DNA of 64,000 nucleotides from Arenicellales bacterium. GTDB lineage: Bacteria; Pseudomonadota; Gammaproteobacteria; Arenicellales; JAJDZL01. The notes below the pieces were generated by a model that was not told the origin of the DNA, did not search any database, and was given only the letters and a program-made list of their open reading frames with translations. Location of the stretch: positions 2,560,552-2,624,551 of the forward strand of contig OZ244840.1 of NCBI GenBank assembly GCA_965220725.1, read 5' to 3'. How positions within the stretch are numbered: position 1 is the stretch's first letter; each line of letters opens with the position of its first letter. Positions 2,313 to 43,192 of this stretch are shown here, piece by piece. The position numbers and the translations under genes are program-made.

Positions 2313-5201
2313 ATGCAATTCAATTTGCTCACAGTACGACTGTCGTTGATCGTCGGGTGTCTTTTGGTTTTTGTATGGGGAGGGGCAAGCAGTAACGAGA
2401 GGGAGTTGTACTTTTATTTCCATGATGACGGTACCAACAGTACGATCACTCCTGTCGGGCAAGCATTGGATCTCGTTGGTTTGAGCCGATGTACAGACCA
2501 ATTTAAACAAGTCGGGAACGATGGTTACAAGTTTCAGGTGCAAGATACGGTTAATGAGGGAACTGGCACCAATCCAGATAATAAGGTAATTTACGCAATT
2601 CATATACAAAATCCTCTTCACCCCAACACTACACCAGGAACTTGCTATGCACCCACTTCGGGTGAAGTCAAGGTTATAAAGAGTTTCGATGGTGCTTCAA
2701 GGTACACACCCGCAAGTGGTGCAAATTGGCGAAATGATCCGGATAGTGGTTTTGCACTCGTTCCAGATTATGCGCACTGGGAATACAACCACACCGATAC
2801 AACTCTGCACTTGAATCGGGTGACTTGGCAAGATACTTGGTGGAAGTGGAATGGAACCCTAGCCAATACGATTGGTGATGCTGATTTCCACATTGACTTC
2901 TATTTTGAATGGAACAACAAGCCTTATGTGGTGATTTTCTCGACGGATGATCCGGCAGAAAGGATTCCGGTTAAACCCATCGAGCTGACTGCAACCCCGG
3001 GCGACGGGCAGGCAACCCTGAACTGGAAACCACAGATCTACAATATAGCCATCACCAAATTTCAGTTTCAGCAGAAGCAGGACAACGGCCAGTATAGCGC
3101 CTGGGAGGACATGACCGGTAGCGATGGTTCAACCGTCAGTTACTCGGTGGATGAACTGGCCAACGGCCATACGTACAGTTTCAAGATCCGGGCAGTGAAT
3201 GACAAAGGCGACGGTGCCGAGTCCAACGAAGCATCGGCAGAGTTGGACGGAGTGCCGAGTTTCAGCGGTGCGATTGCCAATCAGAATTATGTGATAGGCC
3301 AAGCGATCACAACACTGCAGTTACCAACAGCAACCGGCGGCAACGGTAGACTGACGCACACGCTTACACCCACAACGATGCCGGCAGGGCTAAGATTTGA
3401 TCCAACAACTCAGCAGATCAGCGGTAATCCGACGACAGAGACTGTGAATCCGATGTCCTACACTTGGAAAGCGGTGGACTCAGATACCAATACAGCCGAT
3501 ACGGATGCGGCCATATTGACGTTCACGATTGCTGTGGCACAAGACATGCCGCCCACATTTGGCACTCAGACGATTGAGGACAAGACGTACTGGCACGGCC
3601 TGGATGTTCGCACGCAATTACCGGCGGCGACTGGAGGTAATGGTACACCGCTGGAATACACACTCACACCACAACTGCCGGATGGCCTGAGGTTTGATGC
3701 TTCGACGCGTCGGATTCTCGGTGAGACGAAGGAATCGGCGATGCAGAATGCCGTAGAGTACACCTACAAAGTCCACGATACGGACAGCAACCGGGCGGAT
3801 AGCGATGCGGCCACATTGACATTCAATATCTCGGTGACTGAACCGCCAGCGGAGGTGACGGCCTTGATAGACCAGAGCATGGAGCTGATTCTTTCGGAGA
3901 AAGCCCGGATCATTGGGGGTGAGACCATGACCGGCATCCGCTCCAGGGTAGAGAACTTCATGGGACCGCAGGCTGGTGGCAACACCGGCATGAGCGTGAA
4001 TTCAAACGCAGTGATGTCATCGGGTTCATGGCGGGAGCCGGTGCGTATAGATGCTCCGAATTTTGTGTACAGTGACCGCTTTCCTGCCCTGGTGAACGCG
4101 TTCACCGAGGGTGGTTTGGGGCGAAACTCATTCTCCGTATGGAGCAACGCTTCACACAATCGGTTTGAGAATGACAATTCCGCGCTGAGTTACGATGGCA
4201 AGGTGTCGGGGTTCAGTTTCGGAGTGGATACTCCGCTCGGCGATGGCATGGTGGGTGGTGTCACGCTTTCGCGTTTTTCCGGTGAGGCTGATTTCCGTGA
4301 CGGTGACGACAGAACGGGCTGGCAGGAGATTGAGGCAACCAGCGTGACTCCATACTTCGGGATACGGACATCGGATTATATGATGTGGTCGTTTATCGGG
4401 ATAGGTTCGGGTGATTTCGACATCAAGGTTGACGATTACAGCGAGTCCAGTGATCTGTCACTGAATTCCGTGGGAGTCGGTGCCAGCGGAGAGGTGTGGC
4501 GCGATGACAAGACCGAACTGCACCTGATCGGTGATTTCGCACTGACCGAGTTGAGTGTGGATGCGTCGGAACTGATTCCTAAAAAGGATGTCAGCGTGCA
4601 GCGTACCCGTCTGGTTGTCGAGGCGAGTCAGCGCCATCAATCATCCGATGGCGGTGTATTGAAGCCATCGGCTGAGATCGGAGTCGTGGTCGACAGCGGT
4701 GATGGTGTCACCGGTACCCGGTTGGAGGTCGGAGCAGGGGTGAATTACCTGACACCTTCGCAACGCATGACTTTGTCGCTGTCATCCTACGGGCTGGTCA
4801 AGCGCAACAGCTCCGGTGAGTGGGGTGTTCGGGGCAGTATCCGCATGCAGCCGAAAGCAGGCGAGCAGGGACTGTCATTCAGCGTTCGGCCGTCGTATGG
4901 TGCGTCGGTGCGCAGTGTTGACCGTATCTGGGATAACGGACGTACCGATGATGTTGCCGGCCAACGTCGTTATCGGCCTCGGTTGGAAGCGGGTCTGAGT
5001 TACGGCTTCCGAATAGCAGGTGATCGGACGTCGCTGACACCGTACAGCGAGATTTCGATGTCGGGTAACAATCGCACTGTTCGAGTCGGTGCACGACTTG
5101 GATATGACTCCAAACTTGAGATGAAACTGCTCGGAGAAAGAGAGAAGTCTGCAGATGATGTCGAGAACTCGATTCATCTGCAAGGCGGGATTCGATTCTG
5201 A
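2313..5201 (+). CDS. autotransporter outer-membrane protein, paralog 1 (unrecognised N-terminal module, FN3, 2x Ig-like/He_PIG-type, beta-barrel)
   Basis: GGAGG lies 8 nt upstream of the ATG at 2313; the track ORF starts at 2286, but the internal ATG aligns with the paralog starts. Signal peptide is MQFNLLTVRLSLIVGCLLVFVWGGA. The FN3-like segment runs PIELTATPGDGQATLNW...YSFKIRAVNDKGDG. There are two LPxATGGNG...LPxGLRFD Ig-like repeats. The C-terminal ~300 aa have the alternating beta-strand pattern of an autotransporter barrel and end LQGGIRF. Confidence 0.85.
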   Translation: MQFNLLTVRLSLIVGCLLVFVWGGASSNERELYFYFHDDGTNSTITPVGQALDLVGLSRCTDQFKQVGNDGYKFQVQDTVNEGTGTNPDNKVIYAIHIQNPLHPNTTPGTCYAPTSGEVKVIKSFDGASRYTPASGANWRNDPDSGFALVPDYAHWEYNHTDTTLHLNRVTWQDTWWKWNGTLANTIGDADFHIDFYFEWNNKPYVVIFSTDDPAERIPVKPIELTATPGDGQATLNWKPQIYNIAITKFQFQQKQDNGQYSAWEDMTGSDGSTVSYSVDELANGHTYSFKIRAVNDKGDGAESNEASAELDGVPSFSGAIANQNYVIGQAITTLQLPTATGGNGRLTHTLTPTTMPAGLRFDPTTQQISGNPTTETVNPMSYTWKAVDSDTNTADTDAAILTFTIAVAQDMPPTFGTQTIEDKTYWHGLDVRTQLPAATGGNGTPLEYTLTPQLPDGLRFDASTRRILGETKESAMQNAVEYTYKVHDTDSNRADSDAATLTFNISVTEPPAEVTALIDQSMELILSEKARIIGGETMTGIRSRVENFMGPQAGGNTGMSVNSNAVMSSGSWREPVRIDAPNFVYSDRFPALVNAFTEGGLGRNSFSVWSNASHNRFENDNSALSYDGKVSGFSFGVDTPLGDGMVGGVTLSRFSGEADFRDGDDRTGWQEIEATSVTPYFGIRTSDYMMWSFIGIGSGDFDIKVDDYSESSDLSLNSVGVGASGEVWRDDKTELHLIGDFALTELSVDASELIPKKDVSVQRTRLVVEASQRHQSSDGGVLKPSAEIGVVVDSGDGVTGTRLEVGAGVNYLTPSQRMTLSLSSYGLVKRNSSGEWGVRGSIRMQPKAGEQGLSFSVRPSYGASVRSVDRIWDNGRTDDVAGQRRYRPRLEAGLSYGFRIAGDRTSLTPYSEISMSGNNRTVRVGARLGYDSKLEMKLLGEREKSADDVENSIHLQGGIRF

Positions 5202-30714: not shown

Positions 30715-30789
30715 TGGCGCTCCCTAGGGGAATCGAACCCCTGTTCCCGGCTTGAGAGGCCGATGTCCTGACCGCTAGACGAAGGGAGC
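30715..30789 (-). tRNA. tRNA-Glu (anticodon CUC)
   Basis: The reverse complement reads GCTCCCTTCGTCTAGCGGTCAGGACATCGGCCTCTCAAGCCGGGAACAGGGGTTCGATTCCCCTAGGGAGCGCCA. It folds as a cloverleaf with a 7-bp acceptor stem, a TTCGATT T-loop, an encoded CCA and an anticodon loop CTCTCAA. It closely resembles E. coli tRNA-Glu. Confidence 0.9.
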
Positions 30790-38949: not shown

Positions 38950-39095
38950 GTTGCGGAAGTATATCGCACGCGTAAAACACTGATATTGAATTTCAGACTC
39001 AGAGACGGTTAAACAGACTTGATCACCTTATATTGAGAGCGCCATCGGGTCATCTCTTTGGCAGCGGAGGTGACTCAGGTGCTCAAAAAGGAGTT

Positions 39096-39410
39096 TTATT
39101 TCGGATGATCCGAAAAAGGATTCGGGCGTTGGGATTCTCTGGACGGAAAATCATCAAGATTTACACCGCGGGGCATGTTTTCAACCAGCCATTGTCCCAA
39201 CGGTTGCCCCGTACTTCTGTGCTGTTCAATTGGCTGCCTCAAGGTTCGGTGCGTCTCCCATTCGCTTGCGGACATTACAATGAACTGACGTCTCTTTCCG
39301 ATCCGTTGTGGACCCTCTTTCTCGGCAAGTCGCAAAATTTCAGACAAACGCGCTTTGGCTTCCGCGACAGTCCAGATTCGGGGAGTGTGCTTTTCTGGAT
39401 AGCTGGTCAT
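39096..39410 (-). CDS. Phd/YefM-type (VapB-like) type II antitoxin, no cognate toxin present
   Basis: IWTVAEAKARLSEILRLAEKEGPQRI..FIVMSASEWE is the typical N-terminal antitoxin fold sequence. The 146 bp downstream, before mtaD, contain no PIN/toxin ORF. Confidence 0.7.
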   Translation of the reverse strand: MTSYPEKHTPRIWTVAEAKARLSEILRLAEKEGPQRIGKRRQFIVMSASEWETHRTLRQPIEQHRSTGQPLGQWLVENMPRGVNLDDFPSRESQRPNPFSDHPK

Positions 39411-39762
39411 ATTTTTCCAAGTTTTCTCGTTTTCATTGCTGTCGGCTATTTTACTGCGGATTGGATTGGTTTGAAATTATGCGGCGATTGCACGTTTACA
39501 CGGACCAAACACTTGTGAATCTATTTTGCTGATGTACAGATGACAGCGAATTGATGGGGCAGGTATTTGCATTGAATTCGCAGTGATGTTCGATGGCTAT
39601 TGATATTTCTAACTTTCGATTCTGGGCTGGATAACATGCTGTCAATGTGCATCTTGTCAATTTTGAACATGAGCCGACTGAATGCGAATTTGGGCCATAA
39701 TTCACAACCTGAAAAACGACAGAATTATTGCAATATCGTGTCAATTCGAGTAACATAAAGAG

Positions 39763-39815
39763 CAATAGAGCCGTCACGCCTCTTAACAATGCGCAACCTT
39801 GGCGGCTATTTTTTT
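39763..39815 (+). ncRNA. candidate ~50-nt structured RNA, module 1 (promoter-hairpin-U tract)
   Basis: TTGCAA (39728-39733), a 17-nt spacer, then TAACAT (39751-39756). The hairpin AGCCGTCA...TGGCGGCT spans 39769-39807 with an inner CGC/GCG helix, followed by A+T7 at 39808-39815. The predicted TSS is inferred, not observed. Confidence 0.35.
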
Positions 39816-39817
39816 GA

Positions 39818-39958
39818 ATGCCAGTGGCTGAAACTTTCAATGGAGTGGAGTTTGTCTGTGAACGGCAAATGCAAGATCTCGCGGACAGAGGGAAAATTGT
39901 TGATGACCCTGAAAAAAAGCGACACGAAATTATTGCAATATCGTGTCAATTCGAGTAA
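39818..39958 (+). CDS. 46-codon mini-ORF paralogous to the Abi N-terminus (copy 1); translation doubtful
   Basis: My translation is MPVAETFNGVEFVCERQMQDLADRGKIVDDPEKKRHEIIAISCQFE. About half of its first 33 residues are identical to the start of the Abi protein, MAETFNEIALSYEQQLQHLKNRGIIVDDDD. No Shine-Dalgarno sequence. Confidence 0.3.
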   Translation: MPVAETFNGVEFVCERQMQDLADRGKIVDDPEKKRHEIIAISCQFE

Positions 39959-39967
39959 CATAGAGAG

Positions 39968-40020
39968 TAATAGAGCCGTCACGCCTCTTAACAATGCGCA
40001 ACCTTGGCGGCTATTTTTTT
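39968..40020 (+). ncRNA. candidate structured RNA, module 2
   Basis: Same elements as module 1 shifted by +205 bp. The hairpin plus T tract at 39974-40020 is identical to module 1. Confidence 0.35.
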
Positions 40021-40022
40021 GA

Positions 40023-40163
40023 ATGCCAGTGGTTGAAACTTTCAATGGAATGGAGTTTGCTTGTGAACGGCAAATGCAAGATCTCAAGGACAGAGGGATA
40101 ATTGTTGATGACCCTGAAAAAAAGCGATACGAAATTATTGCAATCGCGTATCAATTCGAGTAA
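40023..40163 (+). CDS. 46-codon mini-ORF (copy 2); translation doubtful
   Basis: Translates to MPVVETFNGMEFACERQMQDLKDRGIIVDDPEKKRYEIIAIAYQFE, with the same frame and stop position as copy 1. No Shine-Dalgarno sequence. Confidence 0.3.
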   Translation: MPVVETFNGMEFACERQMQDLKDRGIIVDDPEKKRYEIIAIAYQFE

Positions 40164-40172
40164 CATAAAGAG

Positions 40173-40225
40173 CAATAGAGCCGTCACGCCTCTTAACAAT
40201 GCGCAACCTTGGCGGCTATTTTTTT
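40173..40225 (+). ncRNA. candidate structured RNA, module 3
   Basis: Same elements as module 1 shifted by +410 bp. The hairpin plus T tract at 40179-40225 is identical. Confidence 0.35.
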
Positions 40226-40227
40226 GA

Positions 40228-40368
40228 ATGCCAGTGGTTGAAACTTTCAATGGAATGGAGTTTGCCTGTGAACGGCAAATGCAAGATCTCAAGGACAGAG
40301 GGATAATTGTTGATGACCCTGAAAAAAAGCGATACGAAATTATTGCAATCGCGTATCAATTCGAGTAA
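40228..40368 (+). CDS. 46-codon mini-ORF (copy 3); translation doubtful
   Basis: Same peptide as copy 2, with one synonymous difference (GCT to GCC). Confidence 0.3.
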   Translation: MPVVETFNGMEFACERQMQDLKDRGIIVDDPEKKRYEIIAIAYQFE

Positions 40369-40377
40369 CATAAGAAG

Positions 40378-40430
40378 CAATAGAGCCGTCACGCCTCTTA
40401 ACAATGCGCAACCTTGGCGGCTATTTTTTT
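40378..40430 (+). ncRNA. candidate structured RNA / leader-attenuator, module 4 (immediately 5' of abi)
   Basis: TTGCAA at 40343-40348 and TAACAT at 40366-40371. The hairpin plus T7 at 40384-40430 is identical to the other modules and is followed by a GGAG RBS and the ATG at 40440. Confidence 0.35.
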
Positions 40431-40439
40431 GGAGTATCA

Positions 40440-41348
40440 ATGGCTGAAACCTTCAATGAAATAGCGCTTTCCTACGAACAGCAATTGCAGCATCTCAAGA
40501 ACAGAGGAATAATTGTTGATGATGATGATTCTGCATTGTGTAGTCTGAGAACTATCAGTTATTTCCGTATAAACGCCTATTTGTATCCCTTCCGCCACAA
40601 AGTGCAAAAGGATGCGCACTCCGAGCAGTTTATCCCAGGAACTAGACTTAGCGACGCGATTAATCTTCACGAGTTCGATCGTCTTTTGCGGTTAGCGGTT
40701 ATGGATGCTATAGAGCGTTTTGAAGTATGTGTACGAGCACTATTGGCATATAGAATCGCACATTCGTATGGAGTTTTCGGATACACGAATGCAGCGAATT
40801 TTTACCCGGACTTTGATCATTCGACTTGGCAAAGTAAACTGGAAAAAGAGATACATCGTCGGTCCAAAGAAGGCTTCATCGGCCGATTCAAGAATAAATA
40901 TACCGACTATCCCAAATTGCCAATTTGGATGGCGACGGAAGTAATGTCATTCGGTAGTTTATCCATCTGCTTCAATGGACTCAAAATCGACGATAAGCGA
41001 TCAATAGCTTCCAATTTTTCTCTCCCTTACAAGAGACTCCAAAGTTGGTTGCATTTGCTTGTATATATCCGCAATATCTGTTCACATCACGACCGGCTAT
41101 GGAACCGAAGTCTCTCAATTCGATCAATTGTGCCAAGAGATACAAATTGGAACCCACCAATTACACCTCGGAATGACAGGGTATTCTTCGTGCTTCTGGT
41201 TTTAAGGCATTTGCTTCAGTTTGTGCGCGGTGTCGATGACTGGAAGAACTGGTGTGATGAACTAATTTACTCTATATCCGAAGATAGCAAACTACTCAAA
41301 GCAATGGCGGTTCCAGAAAACTGGATTGAGCATCCCTTGTGGAAGTAA
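40440..41348 (+). CDS. Abi_2 family (AbiD/AbiF-like) abortive-infection protein, HEPN-type
   Basis: 302 aa. GGAG RBS 5 nt upstream of the ATG at 40440. The N-terminal ...QQLQHLKNRGIIVDD...ISYFRINAY and the motif YIRNICSHHDRLWNR (R-x4-H) are characteristic of Abi_2/HEPN. The track ORF start 40404 lies inside the hairpin module. Confidence 0.75.
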   Translation: MAETFNEIALSYEQQLQHLKNRGIIVDDDDSALCSLRTISYFRINAYLYPFRHKVQKDAHSEQFIPGTRLSDAINLHEFDRLLRLAVMDAIERFEVCVRALLAYRIAHSYGVFGYTNAANFYPDFDHSTWQSKLEKEIHRRSKEGFIGRFKNKYTDYPKLPIWMATEVMSFGSLSICFNGLKIDDKRSIASNFSLPYKRLQSWLHLLVYIRNICSHHDRLWNRSLSIRSIVPRDTNWNPPITPRNDRVFFVLLVLRHLLQFVRGVDDWKNWCDELIYSISEDSKLLKAMAVPENWIEHPLWK

Positions 41349-41539
41349 TTCAGAAGACAGTCTGGTTTAATGAGGTTGACTCTAAATGGTAAATTCTTGG
41401 ACTCTGAGGTATGAGTAAGACAAGTACGCGAACTGAAATGGAGGCTGTCGAAATGCAGGAAATGCCGATTGAGTCACGCACTCAGGTGCATTAGAATTGA
41501 TCAACTAAATCCACCTTACGATCTGAGGTTCAAGGGACA

Positions 41540-42147
41540 ATGAACGAAACACATACTACAGCAAATGAGAAAGCCTCCCGACCAGCCACCTATCAGGATG
41601 TGATTGACGCACCTATGAACATGGTAGCGGAAATCGTCGATGGTGAGCTACATACCCATACGAGACCCGCTCCGCCACATTTACTTGCCCAATCTGCGCT
41701 TGGGATGCTAATCGGGCATCCTATGATCTCGAAAGCGGTAAACCCGGCGGTTGGATGCTTCTTTACGAGCCCGAAATCCATCTGGGAGAGAATGTTGTGG
41801 TGCCGAACAATGCAGGATGGCGTCTCATTCGAATGCCTGCGCTTCCCGAAACACCGTTTTTCACACTGGCTCCAGACTGGGTCTGCGAGGTGCTATCGCC
41901 CGCAACGCGCGATCTTGACCTAGACGGCAAGCGGGCGGTTTATGCGCGGGCGGGTATTGACCACATGTGGTTGGTCGATCCGGAGGCGAAGTCGTTGGAG
42001 GCATTCGAGTTGCGCGATGGCAATTGGGTTTTGCTCGACTCAATATTCGATGATGTACCAGTTTCGTTGCCACCCTTTGAGGCGGTCAGTTTTAATCTCG
42101 GAGATTTGTGGAAAATTGCGCCACGGAATAACACACGAACAAGTTGA
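41540..42147 (+). pseudogene. Uma2/DUF820 family putative endonuclease, frameshifted
   Basis: ORFs 41540..41923 and 41755..42147 together align along the full length of the intact paralog at 42536..43192. The frame changes near 41712-41722, between ...LIGHP and YDLESGKPGGWMLLYEPEIHLGEN, consistent with one missing base. Confidence 0.7.
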
Positions 42148-42535
42148 CTGCTGAATATGAAGCGGACAGGCTGAACCTGTGCAGTTCAATGGTTTTCGGT
42201 CTTGCTAGTTCAAATCGAAGGTAATACGGCATTTCTGGCTTGGCACAGTCTTGGATTAGCCAGCCATATAGGCACAAATTAGTTAGTTTTGCTCCTTGAG
42301 AATTGAACGAATTGATCGCAGTCCAATATACCTGGACATCGCTCACCTGATGCTGAAACACAGAGCAGACGCTGATTTTGATCAATTGGGATTGAATTGG
42401 TTTTTAGTGCTGAATCTACTTGATCAGACTTGAGAAGCAGAGAATCCGTGGTGACGATTCAGATTGGCTTGCGATATACTCATGAAATAGCATCAAGGTA
42501 ATGACTAAACCTAATCGAAAGAGGGCCAAGGAGCG

Positions 42536-43192
42536 ATGTCCAAGAAACACATCTCAGAGGATGAAGCCTCATCTCGTCCTGAAATCAATCAAGATGTTAT
42601 TGATACGCCTTCCCACTTGGTGGCGGAATTAATTGACGGCAGGCTTTATACTCGCTCGAGACCTGCTTCCCGGCACGCCTTTGCTGAAACGGCACTTGCC
42701 AGCATTCTCAATCCGCCTTTACATTTCAGTCGTGGTGGCCCGGGCGGCTGGTGGATACTCTTTGAACCTGAACTCCAACTGGGTGAAAACATTTTGGTAC
42801 CGGATTTAGCAGGATGGCGGCGCCAGCGCATGTCTCAACTTCCAGATATTGATGAAACCTATATCGTTCCAGACTGGATTTGTGAGGTATTGTCGCCTTC
42901 CACACTAAGTTTTGATCTTGGCCGCAAGAGTGACATTTATGCAAGAGCGGGTGTCGATTACATGTGGTTGGTCGACCCAAACACATACTCGCTGGAAGCG
43001 TTCAAACTGCAAGGTTCAGACTGGGAATTGATTGACTCGCTATACGGCGATGTACCTGTTTCTTTACCTCCTTTTGAGGAAATCAGTTTCGACTTGGGTG
43101 ACTTGTGGTTGCGTACCGTTCATGAAGACTTGCCGGGCATGTTGTTCGCTGAACCTCAAATCGAGCAGATTGGAACATCAACGCAGATGTAG
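42536..43192 (+). CDS. Uma2/DUF820 family putative endonuclease
   Basis: The core PDWICEVLSPST...D..K...YARAGVDYMWLVDP is typical of the Uma2 PD-(D/E)XK-like family. 218 aa. Confidence 0.7.
   Translation: MSKKHISEDEASSRPEINQDVIDTPSHLVAELIDGRLYTRSRPASRHAFAETALASILNPPLHFSRGGPGGWWILFEPELQLGENILVPDLAGWRRQRMSQLPDIDETYIVPDWICEVLSPSTLSFDLGRKSDIYARAGVDYMWLVDPNTYSLEAFKLQGSDWELIDSLYGDVPVSLPPFEEISFDLGDLWLRTVHEDLPGMLFAEPQIEQIGTSTQM

Follow-up and report, generated by a model that had tools for sequence, protein, structure and literature searches.

Within a 64,000-nt stretch of an Arenicellales bacterium genome (contig OZ244840.1, positions 2,560,552 to 2,624,551 of the forward strand; the whole stretch is called the window below), a gene of the Abi_2 family, abiF, is preceded by a tandem array of four 205-bp units, each of which carries a promoter-like site, a hairpin of the abiF RNA family and a T tract. 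By its sequence, the locus is assigned to the AbiF/abiF-RNA family of type III-like toxin-antitoxin (TA) systems. An earlier reading of the window from its letters alone (the first-pass annotation) had singled out this locus.

The abiF gene and its product

Three features were assigned to the gene itself (all coordinates are those of the window).

40431..40434, + strand: GGAG Shine-Dalgarno sequence of abiF, absent from units 1-3 (sequence, alignment)
40440..41348, + strand: abiF (Abi_2/AbiD-F HEPN toxin), 302 aa (Pfam Abi_2, PADLOC AbiD, PDB 8vz6, 24 invariant residues)
41070..41087, + strand: HEPN R-x4-H motif RNICSH (translation; invariant in 40 homologues; aligned to RNSCCH of PbAbiF)

The 302-aa open reading frame (ORF) had been recognised in the first-pass annotation as Abi_2 (AbiD/AbiF-like) with RNICSH as its HEPN R-x4-H motif, and both assignments were confirmed. 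Its sole Pfam match was Abi_2 (PF07751; E-value 1.5e-51; 175.7 bits against a cut-off of 25.6), a HEPN family, so that the toxin has no ToxN/AbiQ fold assignment. The protein also matched PADLOC AbiD (E-value 1.1e-69) and PDB entry 8vz6 (E-value 1.5e-40), an 'Abi family protein' that is the Prevotellaceae AbiF (PbAbiF) solved with its non-coding RNA (ncRNA). The RNICSH motif is intact at residues R211 to H216, within YIRNICSHHDRLWNR, and RNICSHH of the window was aligned to RNSCCHH of PbAbiF. When 40 homologues were compared, R211, N212 and H216 were invariant, and all family-invariant residues (24/24) were present in the window protein. PbAbiF carrying R210A/H215A is inactive (PMC12373285).

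A tandem array of four 205-bp units

39712..40522, + strand: tandem array of four 205-bp units, the last being the native abiF 5′ region plus ~83 nt of coding sequence (Tandem Repeats Finder, unit alignment)

Tandem Repeats Finder (TRF) reported one array at 39712-40522 with a period of 205, 4.0 copies, 93 % matches, 0 indels and a score of 1326, and AATTATTGCAAT was located at 39723, 39928, 40133 and 40338. The exact 205-bp period and the four copies of the first-pass annotation thus hold. Two other parts of its description had to be corrected. The array does not merely abut the gene but extends ~83 nt into the abiF coding sequence (CDS) in the unit alignment. Nor is the repeat a pure RNA module: because units 1-3 also hold the first ~30 abiF codons in decayed form, which had been overlooked, the repeat is a segmental tandem duplication that comprises the promoter, the ncRNA/terminator and ~30 decayed abiF codons.

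The window units are labelled W1-W4 (unit 4 is gene-proximal), and those of a sister genome (L242, see below) S1-S3. Units W1-W4 are 93-99 % identical and so are their inter-hairpin segments, which derive from the abiF 5′ end; 7-16 fixed differences tell the units apart. The hairpins lie ~150 nt apart within the 205-bp period, each between its own promoter-like site and its own T7 tract. Three minus-strand ORFs that traverse the repeat units (39806-40087, 40011-40292 and 40216-40440; 93, 93 and 74 aa) are near-copies of one another and are taken to be mechanical consequences of the repeat, not genes.

The hairpin RNA and its T tract

39761..39815, + strand: module 1 abiF ncRNA (AbiFr-type antitoxin hairpin) with T7 tract (RF03085 match 39770-39807, 40.2 bits; model R1, 56.9 bits)
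39966..40020, + strand: module 2 abiF ncRNA with T tract (Rfam match 39975-40012; R1, 56.4 bits)
40171..40225, + strand: module 3 abiF ncRNA with T tract (Rfam match 40180-40217; R1, 56.9 bits)
40376..40430, + strand: module 4 abiF ncRNA with T tract, in attenuator position between the promoter and the abiF start (Rfam match 40385-40422; R1, 56.9 bits)

All four hairpins matched Rfam RF03085 (abiF RNA) at 40.2 bits, the gathering score being 37 (cmscan). The gene-proximal match is on the strand of abiF and stops 18 nt before its start codon. The minimum-free-energy fold consists of an outer stem AGCCGTCA/TGGCGGCT and an inner CGC/GCG helix, followed by A and T7, and it bore out the structure that had been read by eye. 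Also as noted then, the hairpin and T tract are the same in all four modules: the 46 nt from the stem to the T tract are identical in W1-W4 as well as in the three units of L242. The stem with its A + T7 finishes 9 nt before the abiF start codon, which would place an intrinsic terminator between the antitoxin RNA and the toxin gene. A generic terminator scan listed nothing at the hairpins because it allows loops of 3-8 nt only and the hairpin loop is too long.

For comparison, 241 loci of protein relatives were used, namely 81 genome loci (80 species-representative and one exact look-up), 80 metagenome loci and 80 viral contigs. A fixed core pattern (GCCTCTNAACNATGC, at most two mismatches) found the RNA in few relatives and was replaced by a hairpin finder and a covariance model. 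In total 74 hairpins from the 81 genome loci were aligned (A3), and the covariance model R1 was built from A3 and run over all loci.

The RNA structure is supported by covariation and not by stability. Among the 74 aligned hairpins, 95.6 % of cells were paired (33-42 % when the partners were slid by 1-3 columns), and compensatory changes, for which the first-pass annotation had proposed to test at homologous Abi_2 loci, were observed at 11/11 pairs. The value for the outer stem is biased upward, as that stem was used in picking the hairpins; the inner 3-bp helix was not so used, and it is paired in 98.6 % of cases with CG, AU, GU and UA variants. The window hairpin is identical to that of locus L002 (39/39), the CDS of which is just 60 % identical. 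Constraint on the hairpin is much stronger than on the abiF gene.

The start of the gene is called differently in the databases. The entry for the window protein (P0001, 314 aa) starts at 40404, at an ATG in the ncRNA loop, and that for a 56 % relative (P0002, 317 aa; L001 4001-4954) likewise starts at an ATG inside the ncRNA loop; ATGCGCAACCTTGGCGGC in the loop is read as MRNLGG by these gene calls. Gene callers start the ORF inside the ncRNA, and therefore the database N-termini for this clade are wrong and the ncRNA is hidden. In the case of L001, the hairpin (3939-4027) has an extra ~34-nt inner stem-loop, GCAGCAATCAGCTTCAATCGTTGAAGCTGCTG, in its loop; it falls below the Rfam gathering score and was found by R1 at 53.3 bits. 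The abiF gene of L001 is flanked by helix-turn-helix (HTH)/rve transposase genes.

Promoter-like sites

39728..39756, + strand: module 1 promoter-like site, TTGCAA, 17 nt, TAACAT (sequence, 8/12 consensus, spacing as in 56/70 relatives; presumed function)
39933..39961, + strand: module 2 promoter-like site (sequence, relatives' spacing)
40138..40166, + strand: module 3 promoter-like site, with spacer variants as in module 4 (sequence, unit comparison, relatives' spacing)
40343..40371, + strand: module 4 (gene-proximal) promoter-like site (sequence, relatives' spacing)

Each unit contains TTGCAA-17-TAACAT, which agrees with the consensus at 8/12 positions and of which the −10 hexamer stops 12 nt before the stem. 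In 56/70 relatives, the best sigma-70-like site stops 11-12 nt before the stem. Because of this shared −10-to-stem distance, the window site is considered positionally homologous to the better-matching promoters of the relatives. A generic promoter scan listed TTAACA-18-TATTTT within each hairpin, which was regarded as chance. The −35 hexamer sits in a perfect palindrome, ATTGCAAT (39726-39733, +205n), in all four units; this may be a chance feature or a small operator.

Decayed copies of the abiF 5′ end

39818..39958, + strand: module 1 decayed abiF 5′ CDS remnant, 46 aa, without Shine-Dalgarno sequence, its 3′ part overlapping the next promoter (ORF list, alignment to unit 4)
40023..40163, + strand: module 2 decayed abiF 5′ CDS remnant (ORF list, alignment, comparison with the resident N-terminus)
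40228..40368, + strand: module 3 decayed abiF 5′ CDS remnant, identical to the unit-2 remnant of L242 (ORF list, unit comparison)

The first ~30 abiF codons recur in diverged form in each of units 1-3, where they appear in the ORF list as 46-aa ORFs and are seen in the alignment. The remnant reads MPVVETFNGMEFACERQMQDLKDRGIIVDDPEKK..., and the real AbiF N-terminus is MAETFNEIALSYEQQLQHLKNRGIIVDDDD. No Shine-Dalgarno sequence was found by alignment in units 1-3 where the real gene has GGAG, and the 3′ ends of the remnant ORFs are the next unit's promoter read in frame. The remnant differs by 22 % from the 5′ end of the gene, and the changes among remnants (~8-9 nonsynonymous to 2 synonymous, by manual codon reading of the variable columns) are in a roughly neutral ratio. 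The module-2 remnant ORF (40023-40163), the one scanned, had no Pfam match. The remnants are pseudogene debris that drifts neutrally.

We also considered whether the remnant came from a foreign abiF allele. This was rejected: the N-terminus most similar to the remnant is the resident one (16/28 identical, with the atypical ETFN and RGIIVDD in common), and it is for this reason an old copy of the resident gene and not an import.

A sister genome with three units

A sister genome, L242 (ENA ERZ25072236, 484-kb contig), was reached via P0080, the second member of the 90 % cluster of the protein; exact-sequence look-ups with the 302-aa protein and with P0001 had given no contig. Its locus has the same neighbours as that of the window (ubiG, amidohydrolase, Abi_2, two Uma2 genes and gyrA). 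The window comes from an uncultured gammaproteobacterium. GyrA is 98 % identical between the two genomes; the next best match is at 81 %, and the closest named match, an Acidiferrobacterales metagenome-assembled genome (MAG), at 78 %. The L242 array has three units (2514-3119; period 205 and 3.0 copies in TRF) and gave three R1 matches.

When the units were compared, S1 was W1-like in its promoter part, S2 combined the promoter variants of W2 with a remnant identical to that of W3, and S3 equalled W4. W3 is itself a mosaic, with a W4-type promoter spacer (positions 24, 25 and 29), W1-type bases 47-52 and a W2-type remnant. This mosaic pattern of variants among the units points to unequal crossover. 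A history of a single clean unequal crossover was rejected, as W3 is a three-part mosaic and conversion tracts are therefore also needed; on the simplest reading, the gene-proximal module and module 2 would have undergone a single unequal crossover, which together with small conversion tracts gave W3.

The two genomes differ by 0-1.4 % per 250-nt bin over ~39000-42000 (~0.4 % overall), and by 1.6-8.8 % per bin in all but two bins of the flanks. The low-divergence block contains a Phd-like ORF, the array, abiF (2/909 nt different) and the first Uma2 gene, which suggests that the island was recently exchanged horizontally or swept between the two genomes.

The variable positions are unevenly placed within the units. 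In the five upstream units of both genomes, 12 variable sites lie outside the left junction, none of them in the 64-nt block of RNA and T tract (0/12; P ~0.008 under uniformity). W3 and W4 are identical at 91/93 positions from the promoter to the T tract, compared with 71/91 (78 %) in the CDS segment after it. Between W1 and W4, the promoter segments differ only at spacer positions 24, 25 and 29 and at positions 48-49 of the −10-to-stem linker, with the −35, −10, RNA and T tract unchanged; these differences affect ~17 % of the ~29 positions presumed to be free, a share close to the 22 % of the remnant. The pattern fits an old first duplication after which selection and/or conversion would keep the functional elements of every module.

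Survey of homologous loci

Most of the 81 genome loci have a promoter, a hairpin and a T tract 14-77 nt ahead of the start codon. A same-strand upstream R1 match was obtained in 181/241 loci (genome 79/81, metagenome 73/80 and viral 29/80). A single module was present in 176 of these 181 ncRNA-bearing loci (~97 %), and 2-3 modules in the remaining five (5/181). The survey upstream of Abi_2 genes for similar repeats, which the first-pass annotation had suggested, thus yielded arrays of 2-3 modules in five other lineages; the four modules of the window are the most among the 241 loci. Short-read assemblies collapse young tandem repeats, so that recent amplifications are under-counted.

L064, Kiritimatiellae MAG: three diverged promoter-hairpin-terminator modules, 1-330, period 99; array begins no more than 45 nt from the end of its contig
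L076, Victivallales MAG: two modules
L016, Allochromatium palmeri DSM 15591: two modules
L005, Magnetococcales MAG: two modules
L160, metagenome: two back-to-back abiF hairpin-terminators behind one promoter, 1731-1860
L010: weak second R1 match

By eye, −35/−10-like hexamers precede each hairpin in L064, L076, L016 and L005. Hairpin starts are 72-243 bp apart in the multi-module relatives and 99-243 bp apart in the four loci with separately promoted modules. The L064 copies are ~74 % identical by column, with compensatory changes between their stems. After the upstream module of L005 come a GGAGGG ribosome-binding site and a degraded remnant of the 5′ CDS (..KPFFSFDDQQ.., compared with ..KPPLTFDQQ..); the architecture is that of the window, though much older. 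Taken together, the alignments indicate that multi-module abiF loci arise repeatedly and independently, but are rare.

As the L064 array lies near a contig end, it may have further copies. In L160, a second Abi_2 gene with its own hairpin (3240-3310) is located ~450 bp past the stop of the first gene. Such tandem abiF systems could be raw material for module arrays.

Genomic neighbourhood

The abiF gene lies in a small defence-type island between housekeeping genes, with ubiG and an amidohydrolase gene upstream and gyrA downstream. Two tandem Uma2 (PF05685) genes follow abiF at 41540-43192, and the intact one matches PDC-S03, a candidate defence family of PADLOC (E-value 9.5e-17). The first Uma2 gene is split in the window into overlapping ORFs (41540-41923 and 41755-42147) and is intact in L242 (202 aa; 4137-4745), and the split is probably a frameshift or a sequencing error. 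On the minus strand, a 104-aa ORF (39096-39410) matched the Phd/YefM antitoxins below threshold (26.4 bits, cut-off 29.8). The space between it and the amidohydrolase gene is too short for a partner toxin, and the ORF is possibly an orphan or remnant type II antitoxin. The only other Rfam match above the gathering score in the window was a tRNA gene at 30718-30789 on the minus strand (RF00005, 62.9 bits).

Proposed function and alternatives

AbiF is a HEPN RNase toxin that is neutralised by an upstream ncRNA, which binds each monomer of the AbiF dimer so that a single-stranded bulge blocks the active site; the RNA region also limits toxin transcription, and AbiF is regarded as a Cas13 ancestor (PMC12373285, PMC12737573, PMC13064643). 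Toxicity and neutralisation by direct RNA binding were shown for PbAbiF and AbiFCd (same sources). The neutralisation and the Cas13 link were given correctly in the first-pass annotation. Its proposal of a type III-like system, in which a HEPN Abi_2 toxin is controlled by a cis-encoded 5′ RNA and terminator, stands on the RF03085 match, the homology to 8vz6 and the published neutralisation, but the system is not new.

We favour, as the probable account, an AbiF-type, type III-like TA/abortive-infection system in which the control segment was duplicated, giving an extra dose of antitoxin from an array that is resized by unequal crossover. By analogy with the described systems, abiF would encode a HEPN RNase toxin, and a ~55-nt hairpin RNA (abiF RNA, AbiFr) made just upstream would bind the toxin and block its active site, while its stem and U tract would also terminate most transcription before the toxin gene. 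Tandem duplication of the 205-bp control segment would have placed three 'orphan' antitoxin modules ahead of the native one, every module retaining its promoter hexamers, RNA and T tract and the co-duplicated CDS piece having lost its ribosome-binding site. Modules 1-3 would then act as extra trans-acting antitoxin genes.

The expected effect is ~4-fold antitoxin transcription with little change in toxin mRNA. If a fraction r reads through each terminator, toxin mRNA would scale as ~1 + r + r^2 + r^3 and antitoxin as ~4(1 - r), and the stacked terminators would also shield abiF from upstream transcription. Most likely, then, the extra self-promoted and self-terminated modules raise the antitoxin dose and insulate the toxin gene. 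Repression would be tighter and tunable by copy number, which could set the threshold at which abortive infection fires, and unequal crossover between the near-identical promoter-ncRNA segments would change the array size. As for phage resistance by abortive infection, the context is suggestive, with Uma2/PDC-S03 genes and the Phd-like remnant in the island.

Several points weigh against this account. The sigma70-like promoter that had been read in each module is present as hexamers in all units at the relatives' spacing, but the site reaches only 8/12 of the consensus, falls below the threshold of the generic scan and was not listed by it. The folding energy of the hairpin is unexceptional (z = −0.73 in single-sequence folding). 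About 97 % of the ncRNA-bearing loci manage with one module, which speaks against a dosage benefit. The difference between three and four units is recent, because both genomes share the low-divergence block at ~39000-42000, and could be neutral; gene conversion, and not selection, could in part account for the RNA segment being identical in all units. What is inferred includes promoter activity, the efficiency of termination, a discrete small RNA, the transcription of every module, the selection for an extra dose and the dosage benefit itself.

The main rival is a neutral segmental duplication by slippage or unequal crossover at short homology, in which the modules may fire but come and go without a selected benefit. 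Copy numbers of three and four in genomes with a ~99.6 % identical island, a co-duplicated CDS remnant that is plainly junk and the single module of 176/181 ncRNA-bearing loci are what it would predict. Yet every unit keeps intact promoter hexamers, RNA and T tract next to a remnant that is 22 % diverged; at least two modules have therefore persisted for long, although tandem repeats are normally unstable. Multi-module states also arose independently in at least five other lineages, and the old, diverged copies of L064 and L005 keep promoter-like hexamers (by eye), paired stems and T tracts. The rival is weakened by this persistence of intact control elements and by the independent recurrence, and we consider it unlikely.

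A wider view, which we hold to be distinctly doubtful, takes arrays of AbiFr modules both as a recurrent, selected, copy-number-tunable 'antitoxin rheostat' and as natural intermediates between single-ncRNA AbiF and Cas13 repeat arrays. The arrays would expand and contract by unequal crossover, with effector-binding hairpins separated by non-hairpin sequence. Such intermediates were predicted by Saunier et al., who observed them up to two motifs (PMC12373285).

A proto-CRISPR-like array is very improbable. Here, read-through would produce a multi-hairpin precursor that AbiF processes into units with flanking 'spacer' RNA, as a step towards Cas13 arrays. Processing of the ncRNA by AbiF and descent of Cas13 from AbiF have been reported (PMC12737573), duplicated motifs were suggested as an array intermediate by Saunier et al. 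(PMC12373285), and repeated hairpins occur at 99-243 bp start-to-start in several lineages. Against this, each hairpin has its own promoter before it and a T7 terminator after it, and this layout therefore favours short RNAs made separately. All 'spacers' repeat one sequence almost unchanged and have the same sense as abiF mRNA, so that they could not guide by pairing to it. No cas1/cas2-type families were found by Pfam among the five flanking ORFs scanned (39096-43192), and the L242 genes around the locus are only ubiG, amidohydrolase, two Uma2 genes and gyrA. A CRISPR-like array was rejected because the 'spacers' are near-identical and each hairpin is terminated.

It is hardly credible that the short ORFs (46 aa) of units 1-3 yield N-terminal AbiF peptides with a modulating effect on the toxin, such as dominant-negative decoys. 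All three are open and keep ETFN...Q.L..RGIIVDD, including the family-invariant Q15 and L19 and the R22 and G23 conserved at ≥90 %. On the other side stand the missing Shine-Dalgarno sequence, substitutions that are almost all nonsynonymous at about the neutral ratio, ORF tails that are the next unit's promoter in frame and the lack of a Pfam match for the module-2 ORF that was scanned (40023-40163). Functional peptides were rejected for want of a ribosome-binding site and because of the neutral drift.

An assembly artefact, in which a single unit was wrongly expanded, has next to no likelihood: tandem repeats are error-prone in assemblies, but the units are distinguishable by their 7-16 fixed differences and the independent L242 assembly carries the same unit variants in a 3-unit array.

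The favoured account, a duplicated antitoxin control segment, bears on how a lone conserved ncRNA gene could have given rise to a repeat array, given that AbiF is the likely Cas13 ancestor. The window, its 3-module sister and the five other lineages show that whole ncRNA modules are duplicated in nature and that their control elements persist as the coding sequence copied with them decays. These loci are material for asking whether antitoxin gene dosage tunes the firing threshold of the toxin, and whether AbiF handles multi-unit transcripts.

Comparison with known systems

The abiF RNA motif dates from 2017 and its function from 2025. The AbiF-AbiFr system with PbAbiF (PDB 8vz6) is reportedly that of Zilberzwige-Tal et al. 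(Cell 2025). No mention of abiF occurs in the Weinberg 2017 main text. As the type III-like TA nature of AbiF and its upstream ncRNA was demonstrated in 2025, the core of the locus is already known, and the claim of an undescribed system falls. The claim that the array-like arrangement has no described precedent stands in part. [quoted passage not shown] Four self-promoted modules and strain-level variation in their copy number are undescribed in the searched literature, the full text of Zilberzwige-Tal et al. aside.

With AbiF-AbiFr/RF03085, the window shares the protein family, the RNA family and the placing of the ncRNA, which directly precedes the toxin gene in the same orientation. In the described systems, each toxin gene has a single ncRNA gene, whereas the window has four modules, three of them orphaned by duplication. 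AbiFCd-RCd22 of C. difficile is alike in combining an Abi_2 toxin with an upstream RNA antitoxin that has more than one abiF motif. It differs in that its closely spaced motifs have a separate terminator, while the window motifs are 205 bp apart, each with its own promoter-like site, and the hairpin itself would be the terminator.

The type III TA systems (ToxIN, AbiQ/antiQ, CptIN and TenpIN) also have a repeated RNA antitoxin upstream of an endoribonuclease toxin and a terminator that sets the antitoxin:toxin ratio, and their role in abortive infection may by analogy be ascribed to the window. Their repeats are 34-50 nt long, arranged head-to-tail and cut from a single precursor by a toxin of the ToxN/AbiQ fold. 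In contrast, the window has a period of 205 bp, separately promoted and terminated modules and a HEPN toxin. Since it departs from the canonical ToxIN type in both repeat architecture and toxin fold, the locus is no such system. Unlike the diverse, unique spacers of a type VI-like CRISPR array, the inter-hairpin segments of the window are near-identical.

The closest likeness in arrangement is to the multi-module relatives (L064, L076, L016, L005 and L160), which also have 2-3 abiF hairpins upstream of one Abi_2 gene. Their modules are old and diverged, whereas the window units are 93-99 % identical, are four in number and vary between sister genomes.

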